32,000 nt of DNA from an uncultured bacterium (GCA_963699255.1 OY969425.1:1-32000), one strand, 5' to 3'. Positions 1,833-29,961 are shown, counted from the first letter of the stretch. Notes: generated by a model from the letters alone, not told the origin. Numbers and translations are program-made.

Positions 1833-2276
1833 TTAAATCTTTCCGGGCAACTGACCGTACCAGTTCTGCTGATCGTCCCGCGAAACAGTCGCCGTAAATT
1901 CAAGCGGCTCACGCTTAACTGCCTTCTTAACGGCATCAGTATAAAGAGAGCCCCAAATTCCTCCTTTAAACCACCTAATGTATTGATTAGTAAGGAAGTG
2001 GCTAAAGAGACTCTTCACATTTCCATACCATACCTTCTGATCGAGTTGCGGAACTTTTGCAGTAAGATCAACAATGCCGCAATTAAACATGTTGAGTACT
2101 CCAGTAAACCACCTATTGTGTTGCAGATATAGACCCTTCTTAATGGATACTCCATACCAAGCTTGCTGATCTCTTATGCTTTGTCGAGCTCCCGCTTTAA
2201 AATTCCCCTTAAATCCACCGCGGGACCAGCGCCTATGTTGATTGCCTAACGAATTAATTCCTTCTGATCCTTCCAT
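1833..2276 (-). CDS. Hypothetical 147-aa Trp-rich repeat protein: three QxxRW...WYG units, the last homologous to cytosolic segments of the GT2-like protein at 24371-25840
   Basis: The track ORF 1833-2342 opens at a TTG inside the promoter motif. The ATG at 2276 has the SD GGGGGTG 6 nt upstream, in the same GTGAATAAAATGG context as the neighbouring gene. Repeats: QHRRWSRGG..DQQAWYG, QHNRWFTG..DQKVWYG, QYIRWFKGG..DAVKKAVKREPLEFTAT..DQQNWYG. No signal peptide or TM segment. Confidence 0.7.
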   Translation of the reverse strand: MEGSEGINSLGNQHRRWSRGGFKGNFKAGARQSIRDQQAWYGVSIKKGLYLQHNRWFTGVLNMFNCGIVDLTAKVPQLDQKVWYGNVKSLFSHFLTNQYIRWFKGGIWGSLYTDAVKKAVKREPLEFTATVSRDDQQNWYGQLPGKI

Positions 2277-2318
2277 TTTATTCACCCCCTTGAAGAGGTC
2301 CACAGAAACAACTCTTAT

Positions 2319-2361
2319 CTCCCCTCTGTATATATATCGCAAAAATCGGCTTTATATTTCA
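2319..2361 (-). promoter_or_regulatory. Promoter-like motif copy (TGAAAT-N17-GATATA + TATACAGAGGGGAG)
   Basis: On the minus strand: TGAAAT (2361-2356), exactly 17 nt, GATATA (2338-2333), then the conserved ATATACAGAGGGGAG. There are 56 nt from GATATA to the ATG at 2276. Confidence 0.6.
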
Positions 2362-21356: not shown

Positions 21357-24300
21357 ATGCCATTTTTTGAACGAATTAAATTCAACAGGACAGATATAAG
21401 AAAGCAAAACGTTGAGCCCCTTAAAATAGGGAAGCAGGCTCCAAAGCTGCATTTGCCGGATCAAGAAATAAGGGTTCGAATTATCCCTGAGATCCATGGC
21501 ATAACGGGGAACATGGAAAACATGAATAATATCGGACGGACCATAAAGATTTCCCAGGATGACGCCACACTGTTCAAGACCCATCCCTGGCTGGAGCAAA
21601 TACCCGAGGACGCGATCTTAAGCGGGGAAACCGCGAAGATATTCAAGAATAAGCTTTCAAAGGTCATTGACGCGATGGACGGCCTGATGCCAAGTATCGG
21701 TGTTACGGGCACTAAATTAAAGAGTATCAGGGTCGCGACAGCGGAATTAAAGAAAATATTTAAGAGATCGGAAGGAAAGACGGTCCGGGACACATGCAAG
21801 GCATTGATCGGCGTATACACCTATTTGGGTGTAAGAGCGGTCGGGACCGTGGCTGTGGTGGGGATCCCGCAAATATCGACAGGTGAAAAGGTGATAGACG
21901 GAATAGCCGCGGCGGCGCTTTTTCTGGGAGAAAGTGTCGTAAGGCTCAGGACAACGATCGGATACCAGCACTCGATCCTGGAAGGATTGGGCAGGGGACC
22001 AAAATATTACGATATAAGCGCGGATGAGAAAGTGCATGCTTCGGGGATCGAATTCAACCCAAATGACCTGGAAAACCCTTTCAAAATATTTACTGACGCG
22101 CCGGAATGCATGTCTGTCCTATATATCAATGAAGAGCCCGGCGTGCTGGAGAGAAGCATTTTCGGGCACTTCTTTATTGAGAACAAGAGGCAAATGATGG
22201 TCGTGAACAGCGGAGGTTATAAGTTCGAGGAGTTCCAGCATATCGTGGATACCGTAAAAAATTGGATAGAAGCAAGAAAGAGCGAGGTACTGTCGGCAAA
22301 AGCTAGGTCCATAAGCTCCCGGGACGCGGAACTGTCGGCCATGGAACTTTTAAAGCTTCTTGTGAACATAAGGACGGAGTGCAAGAGGCTTTCCGATGCC
22401 TACTATGAAACGGCCGTTCAGGATTTTGGCAACATGATAGCGGGCAGCGGCGCGGCGCTAGATAAGGAGCTTGCTCAGCAGATATTGCTGCATACCCGCA
22501 AATGGGACGAGAAGATATCCGCTCTTTATGACCATATAGAAAATTATGAGGGCGGCAATGTAAACGCGGACCAGCTGAGACGCCATATAAGTTCTCACTA
22601 TGACTATCTTGAGCAAAAATTCACTTTTGACATAGTGATCAATTTCCGCAATTTCAAGACCTTTGATGTTGGAACGTATAAAGCCATGTGCGGCGCGATA
22701 GAAACAAGGCTTGCAGGTCAAAATATCGACATGAACGCGCCCGTAGAAAGCGCCTCTTTTAACGCGATAGTAGACAGGATAATCGAGGAGAGCGAAGACA
22801 GGGACAGGCCGGTAAGCTACCTGTTGTCAACGATCCAAATGAACAACGGGAACGTGCGCTATGATCAAACCTCGGCTTCTTATAAATATAATTGCATCAT
22901 CGGCGGAAAGACGAACAAAGCGGTGCTGGATGAGCTTATTATGGAGAATCTTTCAAGAATGGCGTTTGAAGGCGCCTACAAAGCCGGCGCCCGGGCCGAG
23001 GAATATGACCATCTTGGCAGGAAATACGTGAAGGCCGTGAACAGCTACGGTACAAGGTTCCTTGTGACCGTGGATGAATGGCTTGGCGGCATGTCGGATG
23101 TGATACTTGGGCCTGAATTGAGGAGAGCTTCAATTGATCTTGGGAACAATGTGGCCGGACAGCTTCAACTGGATGCCGCAAGGGCAATAGATAAAGAGAC
23201 AGCACAAAGAGCCATAGAAGCGGTGGCATCAAGGACATTGAACAACGGCGGCAACACGACGATCCGCGACAGGCAAAAGATAAGGATAATGGAGAGGATC
23301 GCAAAAGTGTTCATGGAGGATGGCAGGACGACCGGCGATTTCCTGAAAGAAATAGCGGCTGTCGCGCTTTATGATGTGGCGGCTTCTCCGACTTATGATC
23401 CGACATATGAGACCGCGATCGAATGGGCGGCGTATCCCGAAAAGGCGTATATCCTGAGCTATGACAAGGATTATGTCCCGCAGTCCATAGATCCGAACAG
23501 CGGCGAATATAATGATATGGCAAGATTGAGCGTGCCGATGCATGAAAAATGGATCTATGAAGACAACAGGACAAATATAGCTTTGATCCAGCATCCCCAG
23601 TACCAGAAGCATTTTAAAAAAGAAGGCCCCTTAAAAGACGGCGTCAGAATGACTACCGGCAACGGGAAGTACCTGGAGCCGGTGGCAAATTCTTCGGGAT
23701 CGGACCAGCAGGCATGGTACGGCGAGTTTGCCCTGCCAAAGCCGCTTGAAAGGACGCTTAGCAGGTATATCAACAGGAGAACAGGCGTGCAGTTCCTGGA
23801 AAAGGTTGCGAACAAACTTTACAAGGACAAGACCGTTAGAAAGAGCCTTGTCGCGAATATTACAAGGGATATGCGGGAGAATGTGGCTTACAGGATGGAG
23901 AAAGGTATTGACCAGAAGCTGGATTACCTGACCGGGCGGGAGATCATTGAAAGGGTAAAATATTATTCAAGGGATATCATGATCGCCACCGGGATTGGGC
24001 CGGGAAGGGGAAAATTCAACTCGTTCTTCAGCTGCGGTACCAATGAGCTTGAATATGCGGTGGGCATGATGCTTGGTTTTAACAGCCCATATACATATAT
24101 GGTGGACGGTATAACGATGCTCGGGCAGACGACCGTAAGATATAACCCGGACATGGGAAAGATGGAGATACATAATTATGAGCCCAGATTTTCAAATGAT
24201 CTGACATGGATAAGCGAAAGCAATGATCAAAATCACAGGCAAATGCATGAATTGAACGAGTCCGATATGAGGGAAATAAAAGAGGAGTACGAAGTTAACG

Positions 24301-24383: not shown

Positions 24384-25840
24384 AAAAAATCGAGAATAAA
24401 TCGGTCAGGCTCGACTGCCGCAGGGTGGAGCTGGACTATTCGCGCCGTAAGCAGTCCGGAAAAATAATAAAGGATTATAACCCATCGAGCAGCAATTATT
24501 ATGAATTGAAGCTGGGACCGGGAAGGGTGTTCACCGAAAGATTCAGATGTAAAGAGGATAATATTTCCACGATAATAGCGAACCTGAAACTCCAGAGGGA
24601 AATGGTGGGTGTTCCTGATATCGGCGACGGCAGGGGAGGAACGAAGATCATTTCGGTTAAGACTCGCATTGCCGAAATGGTCGCCCAGTACCATTCATTT
24701 AAAGATGACAAGGAATACGTTGAAACTGTATTGACCGCCCCTATCTTTCAGCCGCCAAGCTGGATCACAGAGGACATGATGACCACATATTTCCATTACC
24801 TTACCGGCTGGGACACGGAGATCAATCCTGAGGGCGTTGGGTTTGCGGTCGGGCCTTCGGATTTTGTTGATCTGGCCAAGCAGCATCACAGATGGTTCAA
24901 GGGCGGGCCGGAATGTTATCTGGACATGAAAAAATACCTTGACGCGTACCCGGCGTTGAAACATTCAATGCAGGGGTATTCCATGCAACAGGCGTTCTTA
25001 TGGCCGCTACATACCTTAACCGATGAGCTTCTGTATTATGTGCCGGCCGTTTATTGGGCCGGCCAGATACTCAAGATCGGCGGAAAGATCCTGAAGAAGG
25101 GGATAATCCCGTTTTCAACCAACTGGATCTTTATTCCCGTGTTCGGGTGGTATTTCTACTATACCCTTAAGAACTATATAAGGCCGATGGCTTTAATGGG
25201 GGTCAGTTTCCCCGAATTATGGAGAAAAGAAGCGATGCTTTCCATACAGGGACCTGTTTATGAGGACGCCGTTAAAAAGGCGGTCCTGCGAGAGCCGCTT
25301 GAATTCGCGGCGACGGCGGCCGGAGACAGGAAAATGCTCTCGTATGAATTCCTTAAAGGGATAAAATGGAAAAGGAACCTGAGCAAGGTCACAACGCTTG
25401 TCGGAACAGGTATTTCCGCGGGGCTTGTATATCTGAAAGGCGGCGATCTTGAGTGGCAGACTTATGCCGGCTTAGGGTTCAATGTCCTGTTCCCGCTTTT
25501 AAGATGGGGATTGCTCAGCAGCGGGATAAAAGACCAGTATTCTTACCCCACAAGTTATGACACATACCTGAAGGAAAACCTGGAGCTCGAGGGCGCCGGA
25601 TACATAAAAGTATCCGAACATACCCCCGATACAAGGCTTGTAACCTTTAAGGTGAACAGCAAGCAGGACGCGGAAAGGGCGATAAACAGATTATCGGGTA
25701 ATCTGGGAGCGTTCACCCAGGTGAAGAATTATCTTGCGGGCATTCCGGGCACAGCGGGATTTGCCGAAATAGCAAGCCAGATACTGGCGCCTGATAACGC
25801 GGCCGAACCGAACGGACCCAGACCGTGTACCTGGCGGTGA
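24371..25840 (+). CDS. Membrane GT2-family processive-synthase-like protein (489 aa; TED and QxxRW motifs, 4 predicted TM helices)
   Basis: SWITEDMMTTYFHYLTGWDTEINPEGVGFAVGPSDFVDLAKQHHRWFKGG matches the cellulose-synthase-type block (vTED..t.l.l...Gw...y......g.aP.....l.Qr.RWa.G). It is preceded by LKLGPGRVFTERF (compare G.n.vfRR). After QxxRW come two hydrophobic helices, a cytosolic LREPLEFAATAAG segment at the position of the FxVTxK gating loop, two more helices and a ~100-aa soluble tail. GTG start at 24371 with AGGTGATC (24361-24368), perfectly complementary to the 16S 3' end GATCACCT. Confidence 0.7.
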   Translation: MVSVKKIENKSVRLDCRRVELDYSRRKQSGKIIKDYNPSSSNYYELKLGPGRVFTERFRCKEDNISTIIANLKLQREMVGVPDIGDGRGGTKIISVKTRIAEMVAQYHSFKDDKEYVETVLTAPIFQPPSWITEDMMTTYFHYLTGWDTEINPEGVGFAVGPSDFVDLAKQHHRWFKGGPECYLDMKKYLDAYPALKHSMQGYSMQQAFLWPLHTLTDELLYYVPAVYWAGQILKIGGKILKKGIIPFSTNWIFIPVFGWYFYYTLKNYIRPMALMGVSFPELWRKEAMLSIQGPVYEDAVKKAVLREPLEFAATAAGDRKMLSYEFLKGIKWKRNLSKVTTLVGTGISAGLVYLKGGDLEWQTYAGLGFNVLFPLLRWGLLSSGIKDQYSYPTSYDTYLKENLELEGAGYIKVSEHTPDTRLVTFKVNSKQDAERAINRLSGNLGAFTQVKNYLAGIPGTAGFAEIASQILAPDNAAEPNGPRPCTWR

Positions 25841-26775
25841 AGGTAAAAGAAGGCGGAATATACGAGAGCTTCTCAAGGCATTCAAGGATCGACGGTGATT
25901 TCTATTTCAAGCATGACTATAAGATCCAAAAAAATTACCATGACATGGATAAAGACCTTAAGACCGCCGTATCAAAGGGACGACTGGAAGAGGCATTGGA
26001 TAATTACGACAGGATAGTTAAGGAGAAAAGAAGGAACAGCGCTGAGATCCTGGATGATAAAAAATCATATAAAGCAAAGGTGACCGGCGAGGAAACAGGC
26101 CTGCTTAAATCGGCCATCAGCAAGCTTACTGATAATATTAAAAACGAGAACGACCCGGAAAAGACATATGAGGATATCATGCTTCTTTCCAGGGCTTTTG
26201 TAACGACCGGGCGATACGCTGATTCGGCGGCGCTGCTCCTGAAACTGCTTTCCAAGGGGAATAGCACCATCCCGGTAAAAGGGTTTAAGGATAACGAGCT
26301 TGATGCCGCAACAGGCAAAGCAGCTGACGCGGTGAAAGACAGGAGCGAGATAATAAAAAAGATCCGACAGGCTATATTGCGCGATCCGGCTTCCATGAAC
26401 AAGATCGTGCTGTCAATGAAAACGGATGAGATAAAGGAGATATTCGGTTCGACAGGCGCTGTTTTCAACGGGGTAAGCGCTGAAGATATTTCTGATGTAA
26501 CATCAAATATGACCCTGGAACAGGAAGGCGTATTCATGCAGAGCCTGGTCAATGCGGGATGCGGGGAATTAAAGGACGCATTGATCATAGAGTTCTATGG
26601 AGTGAGCGGAAAGTCCTATGATGAACTTATCGCGTTAACAAAGGAGTTTACGAAGAACGAGCGGGCTATAAGGGACATACTGGACAGAGAAGCGAAAAAG
26701 AAAACGGAAAATATAATGATCAGGATAATCGGTCCTGATATCGCGAAACTATTGCTGACAGGGGGCAAGAAATAA
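25825..26775 (+). CDS. Hypothetical helical protein (up to 316 aa)
   Basis: The ORF overlaps the upstream stop and abuts the next ATG (stop 26773-26775, ATG 26776), which suggests operon coupling. Candidate starts are GTG 25825, GTG 25837 (a GTGA overlap with the upstream stop) or ATG 25945. None has a clear SD. Confidence 0.55.
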   Translation: MYLAVKVKEGGIYESFSRHSRIDGDFYFKHDYKIQKNYHDMDKDLKTAVSKGRLEEALDNYDRIVKEKRRNSAEILDDKKSYKAKVTGEETGLLKSAISKLTDNIKNENDPEKTYEDIMLLSRAFVTTGRYADSAALLLKLLSKGNSTIPVKGFKDNELDAATGKAADAVKDRSEIIKKIRQAILRDPASMNKIVLSMKTDEIKEIFGSTGAVFNGVSAEDISDVTSNMTLEQEGVFMQSLVNAGCGELKDALIIEFYGVSGKSYDELIALTKEFTKNERAIRDILDREAKKKTENIMIRIIGPDIAKLLLTGGKK

Positions 26776-29700
26776 ATGAGCGACCCACTTAATAAAATAT
26801 CCGGTTCCGGCAGCACGAACAATATCAAAAAAGACGTAAAGCCGGAAAATAAAAAGAAAAAGGATGAAAACATGGATGTTTCTGTAACGTTCATCCCATA
26901 CGGGCCGGATTACGCGGAAGTGGCGGATTGCGCGTTCGTGTTCAATCCAGCGCAGTATATGGCGCAGCATCAGATAACCGGGAAAACCAACAAAACGGAT
27001 GTGTCAGAGGAATCCAGGCTTTTTGTGGCAAATTTCTTCAAGAGCGGCAAGGAAAGCGTGGATAACGCGAACTTAGAATCCAAAACTAATTTTGTTGCTC
27101 CGATCGTTAGCCCCGAACCGTTCATAAGACCGTTCATAAACTCGGCGGTCCCGGATAAAACGTACGTGTACAACGCGGCGCTGGACGCGGTGCAACGCGA
27201 GGAACAAGAACAGTTCGGTAGCTTCAATGCGAAGGTAAAGCCGGTGGAAGGCAAATGCTTACTTGGAGCTTGGTTCGGAGTTTCCCCGGATGAAAATAAT
27301 TCAAAATCTATTTTCGCTGTCCCTACTGTTGTCAGGAGCGTTACTTTTGACCATTCAGACCTGGAAGCCCTAAAAAAGGAAAATCTGGCCAATCTGAAGA
27401 CCATGCTGGAGAAAAAAGGGTATACAGGCAAAACGGCCCTAAAGCCTGAAAAAATAGATTTTATCAAGGCGCAATTGACGCCATATATCTCTTTGGACCT
27501 GGATTCCGCGAAAGATATAACCGCAGATATCCCGATCGAGATGAAGACCGTAAACAAGAAAATATCGACCATGGAAGATTACAGGAAGAAAAGGGATGAT
27601 TTTGCCGCCCTGACCGGCAAGGCCCCGAAAATAGAAATGATGTTCGAAGTGTGGAGCGATACCTGGACATACAATCCATTCCCGGCGGCTTTTTGCACGG
27701 AAGTTGACCAGCATGGTCATATCCCGATGGTGACATGGGGACCTTCGGGGCTGCCGTTCAACCCGACGGATGACAAAAGCACTTACCTGGATGAATTCAA
27801 CAAGCAGCTCGCGAATAAGCACGGCGAAATTTATGAATACGCGAAAAATTGGGCCGAGGAGGCAAAGGAATACGGGAAGCCGTTCTTGCTGAGGCCGTTC
27901 CATGAAATGAACCTGCAGGACAACTGCGAATGGACGGCGTGGATGAACGGAGGAGAAAAAGGAATAGCTAAATTCAAGAAAGCATGGCAAAACCTGTATA
28001 CATTATTCAAGGAAGTGGGGGCGGACAACGCCACATTCGTCTGGTGCCCGAATACCAGGGGATATCCGCTAGAAGATTGGAACAGTAAAGCGCGGGATTA
28101 CTTCCCCGGCGCCGAATATGTGGATTGGCTGGGCGTTGACGGATATCTGAAGTCCGAGATCAAGACAGGAAGCGAATTTCCGAGATTCGCCACGGTTTTT
28201 GGGGCCACGATCGGGAAATCGACCGTTCCAAAAAGCAGGATTGTCGGTATTTTTGGAGCGAAAGATATGTCCTGGCGCCAGTATTTCGTCGATCCGGACG
28301 ATAAGGACATTCTTTTTAAGCCTGATATTGAAAATGAATTAAGAAAACAGGCGAATCCCGGCAAGGACACAAAAGCGGACCCGGTTAAAGCAGAAAGGTC
28401 ACGCAAGCTGCTTAAAATTTATGATGAGATCCCCGAGTTGAGCTTATTGTCCAAACAATACCATAAGCCTTTGATGATATGTGAAACATCTTCAAGGCCG
28501 GACCTGTACAAGGCCGAATATTTCACGCAATTATTTGGCGCTGCGAAAGCATACGACCTGAGCGCGGTGGTCCTGTTCAACCAGAACAAATTAGGGATGG
28601 GCGGAAGCGCAGAGGATGACTGGCTTATTGACGCGCCGATCAAGGGCGAAAAGGAAGAGCTTAGTGCCGAGGCGCAAATACAGCTTGATCAGGCAGCGCG
28701 CGAATCCAAAGAGGCGTGGCAATATGTATTCGATCATCTTAAGGATATGGGTTTACCCGAGCCCACAAAGGTTTTAGTTGCCCCGGAAAGGAATCCGGTG
28801 CTTGAAACATTCAGGAATATCGGGAATGACGGTTCCCTGCTGTTCGACCCAAAGGGAATATCGGTCAATAAAATAGGAGTGAACAACGAAACGCCGCAGG
28901 ATATCAAGATGCCGGAGCGGGAAAAAGATCTGAACATAAAAATAAGAAAGCGCAACACCGAGCTGAAAATTTATCCGCAGGACATTGATATAAGGATGAA
29001 GGTGGGGGAGTATCAGGAAGAACTTTCCGGCTACCAGTACCTTAAAGTAATAAATGAAAAAATCGATCCTAAGGAGGTCCTGAAAAAGATAGGCGAACAG
29101 CATCAGCTGGCCATAAATGAACTTAAAAAAGTGCCCGGATCGGACCGCAATTACCTGAAAGCGCGCGCTGCAATGAAAGAAATCTACGCCTCATGGGATT
29201 CTGACGATAAAGACCTGAAAAAGTACTACAGGGATCAAGCGAAAAAGATATCCCTGGAAATAATAGCATTGACGAAAGACGAAAAATACATCAAGCCTTT
29301 TAGCAATAAAACGGCGCTCAAATTCTTTGACCCCGGGTATACAGAAAGGGAGCTGCTCGGGATGAGGGCTTCCGCTCATGTGACGATAGCGGACATTTAC
29401 GCGGAATGGTCCGAAAAGGAAAATGCGAAAAAAGAATATACAGAAGCTTTGAAGATCCTGAAAAACGAAGAATTCCAGAGAAGCGCGTATAAAGACAAGC
29501 TGGCGAATTCAAGCGCGGAATACCGGCAGGAAAAACATTATCCGGACGCTGGCAGGGACTTTTTGGAGGCGTGCGTTTATCCGGTGAACTGGCTTACCAG
29601 GGATAAGGACAAGGACCTGAAGACAAGCATCGCGATCGGCATGGCGAAAGTGAAGACCCTTGATACTAAAGACACAAAAACCTTTGATGAAGGCATTGAA

Positions 29701-29961
29701 GAGCTGAATAATATCGCTTACAAAACTTTCGGCGTAAGCCCAAGGCTTGTATTAAAGGCAAAAGTCGAGCTCGCGTACGCGCTAGCCAACTACGCGTTAA
29801 TAGCGAAGAAAGTGAAAGACAAGGATCCGGCACTTTACAACAGTTATATGGCCAAGGCAATGCAGTCGTTCGTTATCGCAAGGGGACTCTTTGCCACGGA
29901 ATACGCCTACAAGGCCGGCAAACTGATAGATGACCTCACGGCGACCCTGATCAAACAATAA
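26776..29961 (+). CDS. GH26-like glycoside hydrolase with unknown N-terminal region and helical-repeat (TPR-like) C-terminal region (1061 aa)
   Basis: aa ~290-625 follow the family-26 pattern: HIPMVTWGP, KPFLLRPFHEMN..W..W (acid/base Glu in HEMN, aa 377), KFKKAWQNLYTLF, ADNATFVWCPN, YFPGAEYVDWLGVDGY, KPLMICETSS (nucleophile Glu, aa 570), AVVLFNQ. The Lys-rich N-terminus MSDPLNKISGSGSTNNIKKDVKPENKKKKD has no signal peptide. aa ~780-1061 are helix-rich with TPR-like heptads. Confidence 0.75.
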   Translation: MSDPLNKISGSGSTNNIKKDVKPENKKKKDENMDVSVTFIPYGPDYAEVADCAFVFNPAQYMAQHQITGKTNKTDVSEESRLFVANFFKSGKESVDNANLESKTNFVAPIVSPEPFIRPFINSAVPDKTYVYNAALDAVQREEQEQFGSFNAKVKPVEGKCLLGAWFGVSPDENNSKSIFAVPTVVRSVTFDHSDLEALKKENLANLKTMLEKKGYTGKTALKPEKIDFIKAQLTPYISLDLDSAKDITADIPIEMKTVNKKISTMEDYRKKRDDFAALTGKAPKIEMMFEVWSDTWTYNPFPAAFCTEVDQHGHIPMVTWGPSGLPFNPTDDKSTYLDEFNKQLANKHGEIYEYAKNWAEEAKEYGKPFLLRPFHEMNLQDNCEWTAWMNGGEKGIAKFKKAWQNLYTLFKEVGADNATFVWCPNTRGYPLEDWNSKARDYFPGAEYVDWLGVDGYLKSEIKTGSEFPRFATVFGATIGKSTVPKSRIVGIFGAKDMSWRQYFVDPDDKDILFKPDIENELRKQANPGKDTKADPVKAERSRKLLKIYDEIPELSLLSKQYHKPLMICETSSRPDLYKAEYFTQLFGAAKAYDLSAVVLFNQNKLGMGGSAEDDWLIDAPIKGEKEELSAEAQIQLDQAARESKEAWQYVFDHLKDMGLPEPTKVLVAPERNPVLETFRNIGNDGSLLFDPKGISVNKIGVNNETPQDIKMPEREKDLNIKIRKRNTELKIYPQDIDIRMKVGEYQEELSGYQYLKVINEKIDPKEVLKKIGEQHQLAINELKKVPGSDRNYLKARAAMKEIYASWDSDDKDLKKYYRDQAKKISLEIIALTKDEKYIKPFSNKTALKFFDPGYTERELLGMRASAHVTIADIYAEWSEKENAKKEYTEALKILKNEEFQRSAYKDKLANSSAEYRQEKHYPDAGRDFLEACVYPVNWLTRDKDKDLKTSIAIGMAKVKTLDTKDTKTFDEGIEELNNIAYKTFGVSPRLVLKAKVELAYALANYALIAKKVKDKDPALYNSYMAKAMQSFVIARGLFATEYAYKAGKLIDDLTATLIKQ

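Follow-up and report, generated by a model that had tools for sequence, protein, structure and literature searches.

Three overlapping ORFs of an uncultured bacterium as likely fission products of a giant, divergent relative of the cellulose synthases

The DNA analysed here is a stretch of 32,000 nucleotides (nt) from an uncultured bacterium (GCA_963699255.1, OY969425.1:1-32000), referred to as the window, in which positions 21,357 to 25,840 hold two long open reading frames (ORFs), ORF1 and ORF2, that overlap each other and are followed by an overlapping third, ORF3 (Table 1). Comparison with related sequences identifies the three ORFs as pieces of one ancestral giant protein. We favour, with some reserve, the reading that they are gene-fission products of a giant membrane protein representing a very rare, undescribed and divergent branch of the cellulose-synthase superfamily. 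It is quite possible, although we stop short of calling it probable, that this protein is a processive synthase with a GT-A domain divided over two chains, the DxD, QxPQ and FxCGT motifs being on one and the TED and QxxRW motifs and the gating loop on the other, within a giant branch of 1500-5200 amino acids (aa) that is partnered with glycoside hydrolases of family GH26 and makes a possibly beta-mannan-like polymer. An earlier reading of the window, made without database searches (here the sequence-only reading), had suggested a two-piece synthase or a GT2 derivative with a new function; the split stands, but the number of pieces does not, as with ORF3 there are three.

Relatives of ORF1 to ORF3 carry the whole protein as one ORF. 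The ancestral state is therefore a single giant ORF, from which the arrangement in the window is derived. The protein P0004 (1515 aa) is one ORF that spans ORF1, ORF2 and, at its C-terminus, the first ~40 residues of ORF3, the protein P0027 (1502 aa) is an uninterrupted single ORF, and the likewise uninterrupted ORF of the locus L008 (at least 1521 aa, 48% identical to ORF2) includes all of ORF3. In all, four relatives with such a single ORF, of 1500-1520 aa or more, show 38-48% identity to the pieces in the window, and ORF1 is homologous to the N-terminal ~900-1000 residues of P0004, P0027 and L008. Fused orthologs, which the sequence-only reading had thought worth looking for, do exist. On the contig L001, the ORF2 and ORF3 homologs are fused in the protein P0002 (61% identical), and the distant family members are single ORFs of 1778-5208 aa.

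The giant family is extremely rare. A protein search of 5.8 billion clustered proteins returned two relatives for ORF2 and one for ORF1, two scans of genome contigs found no further members, a metagenome scan added L008 alone, and P0027 was the sole return of the final homolog search. The survey of the phylum found a patchy distribution, with the module present in 4 of 146 species genomes (the window genome, G034, G063 and G066); it was not found in five genomes of the same family, which are 70-86% complete. The gene is split in G034, and in G063 and G066 the TED/QxxRW module belongs to open frames of 5208 and 3683 aa (L012, G063:C4:52648-56820, and L014, G066:C3:109460-113104, respectively). 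The representative proteins P0018-P0020 are 3680-4016 aa long.

Junction 1, between ORF1 and ORF2, is a real gene fission which, judged from its conservation, is also maintained. The Shine-Dalgarno (SD) sequence AGGTGATC inside the end of ORF1 is perfectly complementary over 8 nt to the 16S 3' end GGATCACCTCCTTTCT at ~1546-1561, as the sequence-only reading had seen, with an aligned spacing of ~7 nt to the GTG start of ORF2. The same junction, GAGAAGGTGATCTGGTGGTATCA(A/G)TAA, is found on L001, an independent metagenome contig with 61% identity (GAG AAG GTG ATC TGG TGG TAT CAA TAA on L001, GAG AAG GTG ATC TGG TGG TAT CAG TAA in the window), where the ORF2 homolog starts at the same GTG, and the protein P0010 begins with MVSINKLG, which is the same start as that of ORF2. 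L001 has an identical SD, whereas the fused relatives L008, L002 and L010 lack it, their matching codons reading GATACGGTCATC, GAAAAAGTCGTA and GAAAAGGTAATA, respectively; since these codons differ, the SD exists only in the split genomes. The conserved junction and the restriction of the SD to split genomes support, as far as sequence can, the proposal that the two ORFs are translationally coupled and that the overlap is no sequencing artefact.

Compared with L008, the window has a net loss of 4 nt at junction 1, in a non-conserved linker of 11-13 residues which, in the AlphaFold model of L008, sits between two beta-rich domains (predicted local distance difference test [pLDDT] scores of 70-87). 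We propose that the break arose as a small indel in this linker between two inserted beta-rich domains, and that the split was fixed because ORF2 could be re-initiated at the GTG located 10 nt ahead of the ORF1 stop with the help of the strong SD, which synonymous changes in ORF1 may have created. After the shared split, ORF1 and ORF2 kept 61-62% identity to L001 with all motifs intact, which favours function of the pieces.

Sequencing or assembly indels in what is really one ordinary long gene, arising in a long-read or merged assembly, would produce a similar picture, as both breaks are -1, the typical signature of a dropped base, and the genome is a single 1.77-Mb contig. We consider this very unlikely for the locus as a whole and, for junction 1, an artefact is hardly credible, because the junction is reproduced base for base in the independent contig and again in P0010, and because the change needed to fuse ORF1 and ORF2 would have to fall 5' of the TAA, where the two genomes have the same sequence. 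The assembly also looks clean, since rpoB, dnaE and secA of the genome each lie in one frame, and all other long ORFs of the window are unbroken. The run of eight A's (A8) at the junction was considered as a fusion or slippage site and rejected: the TAA stop, in which the run begins, is located 5' of any change in the length of the run, so that such a change cannot join ORF1 and ORF2, and the run is not conserved on L001. A length change would disable ORF2 and spare ORF1, making the run a possible on/off slippage site.

Slightly less probable still is programmed recoding, in which a -1 shift of the ribosomes, or of RNA polymerase at the A8 run, would still allow one fused protein to be made. 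The -1 relation at both junctions, the strong SD-like element 13 nt upstream of the A-run, which is reminiscent of dnaX, and the linker of the hypothetical fusion, which equals the L008 linker in length, would suit this explanation. However, there is no slippery heptamer (X XXY YYZ) within 24359-24383, the sole stretch where a shift could act, the A-run comes after the zero-frame stop and is absent from L001, junction 2 is without a comparable signal, and the conservation has a simpler explanation in a GTG at the ideal distance from the SD.

ORF2, by its profile alignments, is homologous to the C-terminal half of processive synthases of glycosyltransferase family 2 (GT2), from the TED motif to the loop at the FxVTxK position. 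TED (residues 133-135, nt 24767-24775) and QHHRW (residues 171-175, nt 24881-24895) are spaced by 38 residues, as in bona fide GT2 proteins, and both TED and the R-W of QxxRW are invariant down to family members at 21% identity, with the aligned BcsA counterpart being ITED...QRGRW. The two long helices that follow (hydropathy 0.3-1.1) are aligned with membrane helices of true GT2 proteins and CesA, and the PLEFAATAAGDRK loop is paired with MDFIKTPK by hhalign and with NFTVTSK of plant CesA (PDB ID 8vhz) by HMMER; LEFAATAAG occupies residues 310-318 (nt 25298-25324), and in distant members the gating loop reads F.VT. In BcsA and CesA, the loop adjoining IF3 gates the substrate (PMC8306620).

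An hhalign comparison of the family with three true GT2 proteins gave a probability of 97.8% and an E-value of 9.8e-13 over 204 columns, spanning TED, QxxRW and the two helices up to PLEFAATAAGDRK. While a first PDB search with a six-sequence ORF2 profile matched no GT2 protein, a broader, insert-trimmed profile including the most distant members matched cellulose synthases and CslF6 only (E 4e-7 to 2e-4), namely plant CesA (PDB IDs 8vhz, 6wlb and 7d5k), BcsA (4hg6, 4p00, 5ej1 and 7lby) and CslF6 (8dqk). The BcsA and plant CesA structures were matched at E 4e-7 to 1e-6, and the CesA alignment extends to the FTVTSK loop. Searched against 1.84 billion representative proteins, the profile of the ORF2 homologs found only 25 at E <= 1e-3, the top matches being giants of 1500-4016 aa and the tail (E 5e-6 to 1e-3) being bona fide GT2 proteins (Glyco_tranf_2_3, Glyco_transf_21 and Cellulose_synt), matched at the TED-QxxRW-helix region. 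As a single sequence, ORF2 gives a GT2 hint in Pfam, but Glyco_trans_2_3 reaches 12.7 bits and stays below the cut-off of 27, and the best NCBIfam hint is PgaC (TIGR03937) with an E-value of 0.01, far below the threshold. No PilZ or BcsB family was matched in ORF2, ORF3 or the neighbouring ORFs.

The proposal of a highly divergent GT2 synthase is supported by the hhalign result and the CesA and BcsA matches, the BcsA-type topology by the matching of TED, QxxRW, helices and loop in the profile alignments, and the positions given for TED, QxxRW and LEFAATAAG were right. In one clade (P0003, P0004, P0006 and P0027; loci L002, L004 and L010), the Q of QxxRW is replaced by M, giving MHRRW or MWRRW, with R and W invariant.

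The sequence-only reading suggested that the missing N-terminal part of the synthase may lie in the upstream ORF, of which the common origin of both ORFs in one ancestral protein holds, whereas the presence of the DxD half of the GT-A domain in ORF1 is suggestive and not proven; on the motif evidence we lean towards it. Within the 500 residues before TED, the densest invariant clusters of the family alignment, which reaches down to 21% identity, are S-x-D-[KT]-D-Y, N-[IV]-x-x-[LIV]-Q-x-x-Q, D-Q-x-x-W-Y-G and G-[IM]-x-x-G-[RK]…F-x-C-G-T, resembling, in this order, FDADxxP, VQTPQ, FFG and CCGT of true GT2 proteins. SYDKDYVP aligns with FDADxxP when the blocks are concatenated and is not significant alone, IALIQHPQYQ alone falls on VQTPQ of the GT2 profile (E 0.024), SDQQAWYGEF aligns with QQxxFFG only in the concatenated test and is not placed there alone, and the GIGPGRGKFNSFFSCGTNELE block alone falls on CCGTG (E 0.0045). 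The E. coli BcsA match of the trimmed profile also reaches back over the GIGPGRGKFNSFFSCGTNELE block. Concatenated with the TED block, the ORF1 blocks gave a fully colinear alignment with a score of 95.9, compared with a null of 87.8 +/- 1.0 and with 0 of 150 random ORF1 block sets reaching 95.9, a control that is lenient because the blocks were picked knowing the GT2 motifs.

The expected DxD position had been read as LDCRR in ORF2, which we reject because the first ~125 residues of ORF2 form an inserted beta-rich domain; the best DxD candidate is instead the DKD in ORF1 (nt 23463-23471). If ORF1 carries the DxD half, the domain would contain two very large inserts, one of ~430 aa, helical, before the DxD and one of ~280 aa, beta-rich, between FxCGT and TED, at sites comparable to those of the PCR and CSR inserts in plant CesA (PMC8306620). 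As the fission falls within the second of these large inserts, two chains would together form the active site.

Such a composite site would receive DxD, QxPQ and FxCGT from ORF1, and the TED catalytic base, the acceptor-binding QxxRW and the gating loop from ORF2, the catalytic elements being set apart by large inserts as in plant CesA. The two chains would reassemble in the membrane, and the enzyme would polymerise a sugar from its nucleotide sugar and thread the growing chain through its own helices.

Besides the lenient control, several results weigh against the proposed division of a GT-A domain and its membership in the superfamily. Singly, the four ORF1 blocks reach E-values of 0.27, 0.024, 0.22 and 0.0045 with a five-sequence GT2 profile, they match nothing in the PDB when searched alone, and the natural ORF1 region aligned to the N-terminal half of GT2 by hhalign is not significant (E 0.1). 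The first nucleotide-binding Asp (DDG) and the beta1 element were not detected, with the SVLYINEE...VVNSGG block falling within the null distribution; this region is beta-alpha-beta in the AlphaFold model, at low confidence. On the ORF2 side, the gating-loop sequence LEFAATAAGDRK keeps the F and T of FxVTxK and not the V or K, and the four predicted membrane helices are weakly hydrophobic, with peaks of 0.9-1.3. The AlphaFold prediction for the fused L008 protein (1200 aa, alignment of 10 rows) has a mean pLDDT of 57.7, with the GT-like parts below 50, and that for ORF2, with a mean pLDDT of 43.1, is unreliable and was used for secondary structure only. The Foldseek search with the L008 model gave no match at E < 0.05; the top match, the TcdB glucosyltransferase domain (E 0.055, TM-score 0.06-0.12), was rejected as noise. 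Finally, 4 of the 8 loci examined have frame breaks, which could also point to a family that is prone to decay.

An alternative is a GT2-derived protein with another role, for example a glycan-binding channel or a translocon, in which only the half with TED, QxxRW and the helices would survive, ORF1 would be unrelated to GT-A and there would be no composite site. We consider this improbable, though less so than the artefact and recoding explanations. The lack of a significant GT-A signal of ORF1 in Pfam, PDB profile searches and AlphaFold models, the missing first Asp and beta1 element, and the Q to M change of QxxRW in P0003, P0004, P0006 and P0027 would all agree with it, but TED, R-W and the D-x-D block are invariant to 21% identity, the conserved ORF1 blocks agree with the canonical motif series in both order and identity, and the insert sites parallel those of plant CesA (PMC8306620).

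A further ORF of the window (1833-2342, minus strand; 169 aa), beside the 16S gene, is a patchwork of the most conserved motifs of the giant protein. It has three copies of QxxRW (NQHRRWSRGG, QHNRWFTG and NQYIRWFKGG), three copies of DQQxWYG, KAGAR and FNCG, and carries LYTDAVKKAVKREPLEFTAT, which is identical to ORF2 residues 294-315 at 17 of 22 positions. The similarity is at the protein level, with a single 23-nt DNA match, and the mixture of ORF1 and ORF2 motifs fits with those motifs acting together.

Junction 2, between ORF2 and ORF3, differs from L001 by the deletion of one nucleotide (…CAA ACT GTG ACT CTG… on L001, …AGA CC GTG TAC CTG… in the window). ORF2 stops five codons past the deletion, and its TGA overlaps with an in-frame GTG of ORF3 (GTGA, 25837-25840). 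The deletion is seen only in the window genome, and the break is younger than junction 1. It falls within the small C-terminal beta domain, which is continuous in L001, L008, P0004 and P0027. A single base missing relative to L001 in this one genome, and a break that cuts a small domain, are the features of junction 2 that speak for the indel explanation discussed above, and an assembly error is a minor but appreciable chance here. We nevertheless hold the break to be probably real, the 1-nt deletion being bridged, as we propose, by the GTGA stop-start overlap.

Interruptions are also found elsewhere in the family. In G034, which belongs to the same class, TED and QxxRW are separated by an in-frame TGA, a GAGG and an ATG (L006 1396-1410; G034:C1, ~249,000), and the split leaves an open frame of ~1345 aa with a 309-aa protein after it; P0008 and P0013 also start just before QxxRW. 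In L004 (722-771), a 1-nt deletion (GTAAAG in L010, GTAAG in L004) shifts the frame within the beta domain upstream of the WWF motif; there is no start codon nearby, and either the locus is a pseudogene or the contig contains an error. Interruption evidently comes easily to this family, and at least two different fissions are conserved among diverged sequences.

A decaying pseudogene, that is, a degenerating giant gene whose pieces are non-functional, would account for the frequent frame breaks and stops (two in the window, and others in L001, L004 and G034) and for the presence of the family in only 4 of 146 genomes of the phylum. This is unlikely in our view, though ahead of the artefact and recoding explanations, as the three pieces are all long and open, none of the family-invariant motifs is damaged, ORF1 and ORF2 are still 61-62% identical to L001 after the shared split, and the split gained a proper SD and start.

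Outside the window, rpoC of the genome (G000:C1:1674735-1678818) consists of two overlapping ORFs covering model positions 2-652 and 624-1145. This is the rpoC1/rpoC2 split of the cyanobacterial type and a second natural fission in the genome. A genome-wide count of overlapping ORF pairs was uninformative, as picking the longest ORF creates many false overlaps.

The coordinates of the features are collected in Table 1. ORF1 and ORF2 overlap by 13 nt and ORF2 and ORF3 by 16 nt, each successive ORF being in the -1 frame relative to the preceding one, and ORF4 begins immediately 3' of ORF3. The purine-rich AAGGG lies ~11 nt upstream of the ORF1 ATG at 21357, and no promoter- or terminator-like excess was found between ORF1 and ORF4. 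No Pfam or NCBIfam family was matched by ORF1. In a test for a tandem duplication, the two beta domains flanking junction 1 showed no mutual similarity.

Table 1. Positions of the ORFs, junctions and motifs, counted from the first letter of the window
Feature	Position (nt)	Strand	Remarks
ORF1	21357..24383	+	1008 aa from ATG 21357; 1016 aa from TTG 21333
Predicted membrane hairpin, two hydrophobic segments	21801..21947	+	ORF1 residues 157-179 and 187-205; Kyte-Doolittle, 19-residue windows, 1.57-1.64
SYDKDYVP, candidate metal/nucleotide DxD	23457..23480	+	Invariant to 21% identity
IALIQHPQYQ, candidate QxPQ	23577..23606	+	Invariant Q..Q
SDQQAWYGEF, invariant DQxxWYG block	23700..23729	+	Family alignment
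GIGPGRGKFNSFFSCGTNELE, candidate FFCGS-type motif (FSCGT)	23991..24053	+	Family alignment, GT2 profile
SD AGGTGATC for ORF2, inside the ORF1 end	24361..24368	+	Complementary to the 16S 3' end
Junction 1, ORF2 GTG start to ORF1 TAA stop	24371..24383	+	13-nt overlap, -1 frame relation
A8 run	24382..24389	+	First two A's complete the ORF1 stop; run within ORF2 codons 4-7
ORF2	24371..25840	+	489 aa, GTG start; from N to C: beta-rich domain, TED, QxxRW, helices, gating-loop position, start of C-terminal beta domain
WITEDM (TED, catalytic-base position of GT2 synthases)	24761..24778	+	Invariant in family; aligned with TED of GT2, BcsA and CesA
QHHRWFKGG (QxxRW)	24881..24907	+	Aligned with QRGRW of BcsA 4hg6
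Two long, aromatic-rich, weakly hydrophobic helices	24998..25180	+	ORF2 residues 211-233 and 251-276
Amphipathic helices and PLEFAATAAGDRK loop	25220..25333	+	IF3 / FxVTxK gating-loop position
Second pair of long helices	25379..25528	+	ORF2 residues 325-355 and 362-383
Junction 2	25823..25840	+	1-nt deletion relative to L001 (ACT there, CC here); ORF2 stop TGA 25838-25840
ORF3	25825..26775	+	316 aa; start GTG 25825 or GTG 25837; remainder of C-terminal beta domain and helical tail
ORF4	26776..29961	+	1061 aa; GH26 glycoside hydrolase with TPR-like tail

The match of ORF4 to the GH26 family in Pfam has an E-value of 1.9e-12, and a GH26-family gene or an ORF4 homolog follows the synthase gene in L001, L002, L004, L008 and L010. 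Synthase-dependent systems pair a synthase with a hydrolase for the same polymer, such as BcsZ for cellulose, and GH26 enzymes are mostly beta-mannanases, beta-mannan being the polymer type that they usually cut. By analogy, the invariable adjacency of GH26 might hint at a product of the beta-mannan, glucomannan or beta-1,3-xylan type, which we offer tentatively and as the weakest step of the argument. A beta-mannan derived from GDP-mannose would be a reasonable but equally weak guess.

Among known systems, BcsA (PDB IDs 4hg6, 4p00 and 7lby) resembles the giant protein in the spacing of TED and QxxRW, the predicted helices that follow, the predicted amphipathic helix and the loop aligned at the FxVTxK position, and in having a catalytic domain flanked by membrane segments, which are predicted here. 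In the BcsA system, the glycoside hydrolase gene BcsZ is located next to the synthase gene, like the GH26 gene here. The giant protein differs in being 2-6 times larger, with ~430 aa between the putative GT-A start and the DxD and ~280 aa between FxCGT and TED, in the lack of a visible PilZ domain or BcsB partner, in the partner hydrolase being GH26 and not GH8, in its coding in three pieces, and in not reaching the Pfam thresholds for GT2. The plant CesA/Csl proteins (PDB IDs 6wlb, 8vhz and 8dqk) are the best PDB matches, covering TED to the loop equivalent to FTVTSK. Plant CesA has large, lineage-specific PCR and CSR inserts inside the catalytic domain, and CslA makes beta-mannan (PMC8306620). 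The inserts found here, however, are much larger than those of the plant proteins and not related to them in sequence, a RING domain is absent, and the gene is prokaryotic and split.

The PgaC/IcaA synthases of poly-N-acetylglucosamine (PNAG), to which the TIGR03937 hint of ORF2 points, work together with PgaD/IcaD, and their activity depends on more than one polypeptide. There, however, one chain holds an intact GT-A domain and its partner is a small accessory membrane protein, whereas here the division appears to run through the catalytic domain itself. Natural split enzymes include the cyanobacterial rpoC1/rpoC2 and Alg13/Alg14, in each of which one ancestral enzyme is made as neighbouring pieces that come together again. 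The two chains of Alg13/Alg14 make up a glycosyltransferase, but one of the GT-B type, and the split is between its two Rossmann domains. Cellulose, chitin, hyaluronan, PNAG and mannans are products of processive GT2 synthases, and, to our knowledge, no characterised member divides its catalytic domain between chains; limited literature searches returned no description of a split inside the GT-A domain of a processive synthase.

The family is invisible to standard annotation, as it receives no Pfam or NCBIfam call, and the locus illustrates that adjacent ORFs annotated as hypothetical should in such cases be read as one functional unit. It keeps its motifs while huge inserts separate them, and the lineage-specific split points, in the linker here and in the interval between TED and QxxRW in G034, would show where the fold tolerates interruption. 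If the composite synthase proposed here is correct, these proteins would provide natural split-enzyme pairs for studying how an active site and a channel are assembled.

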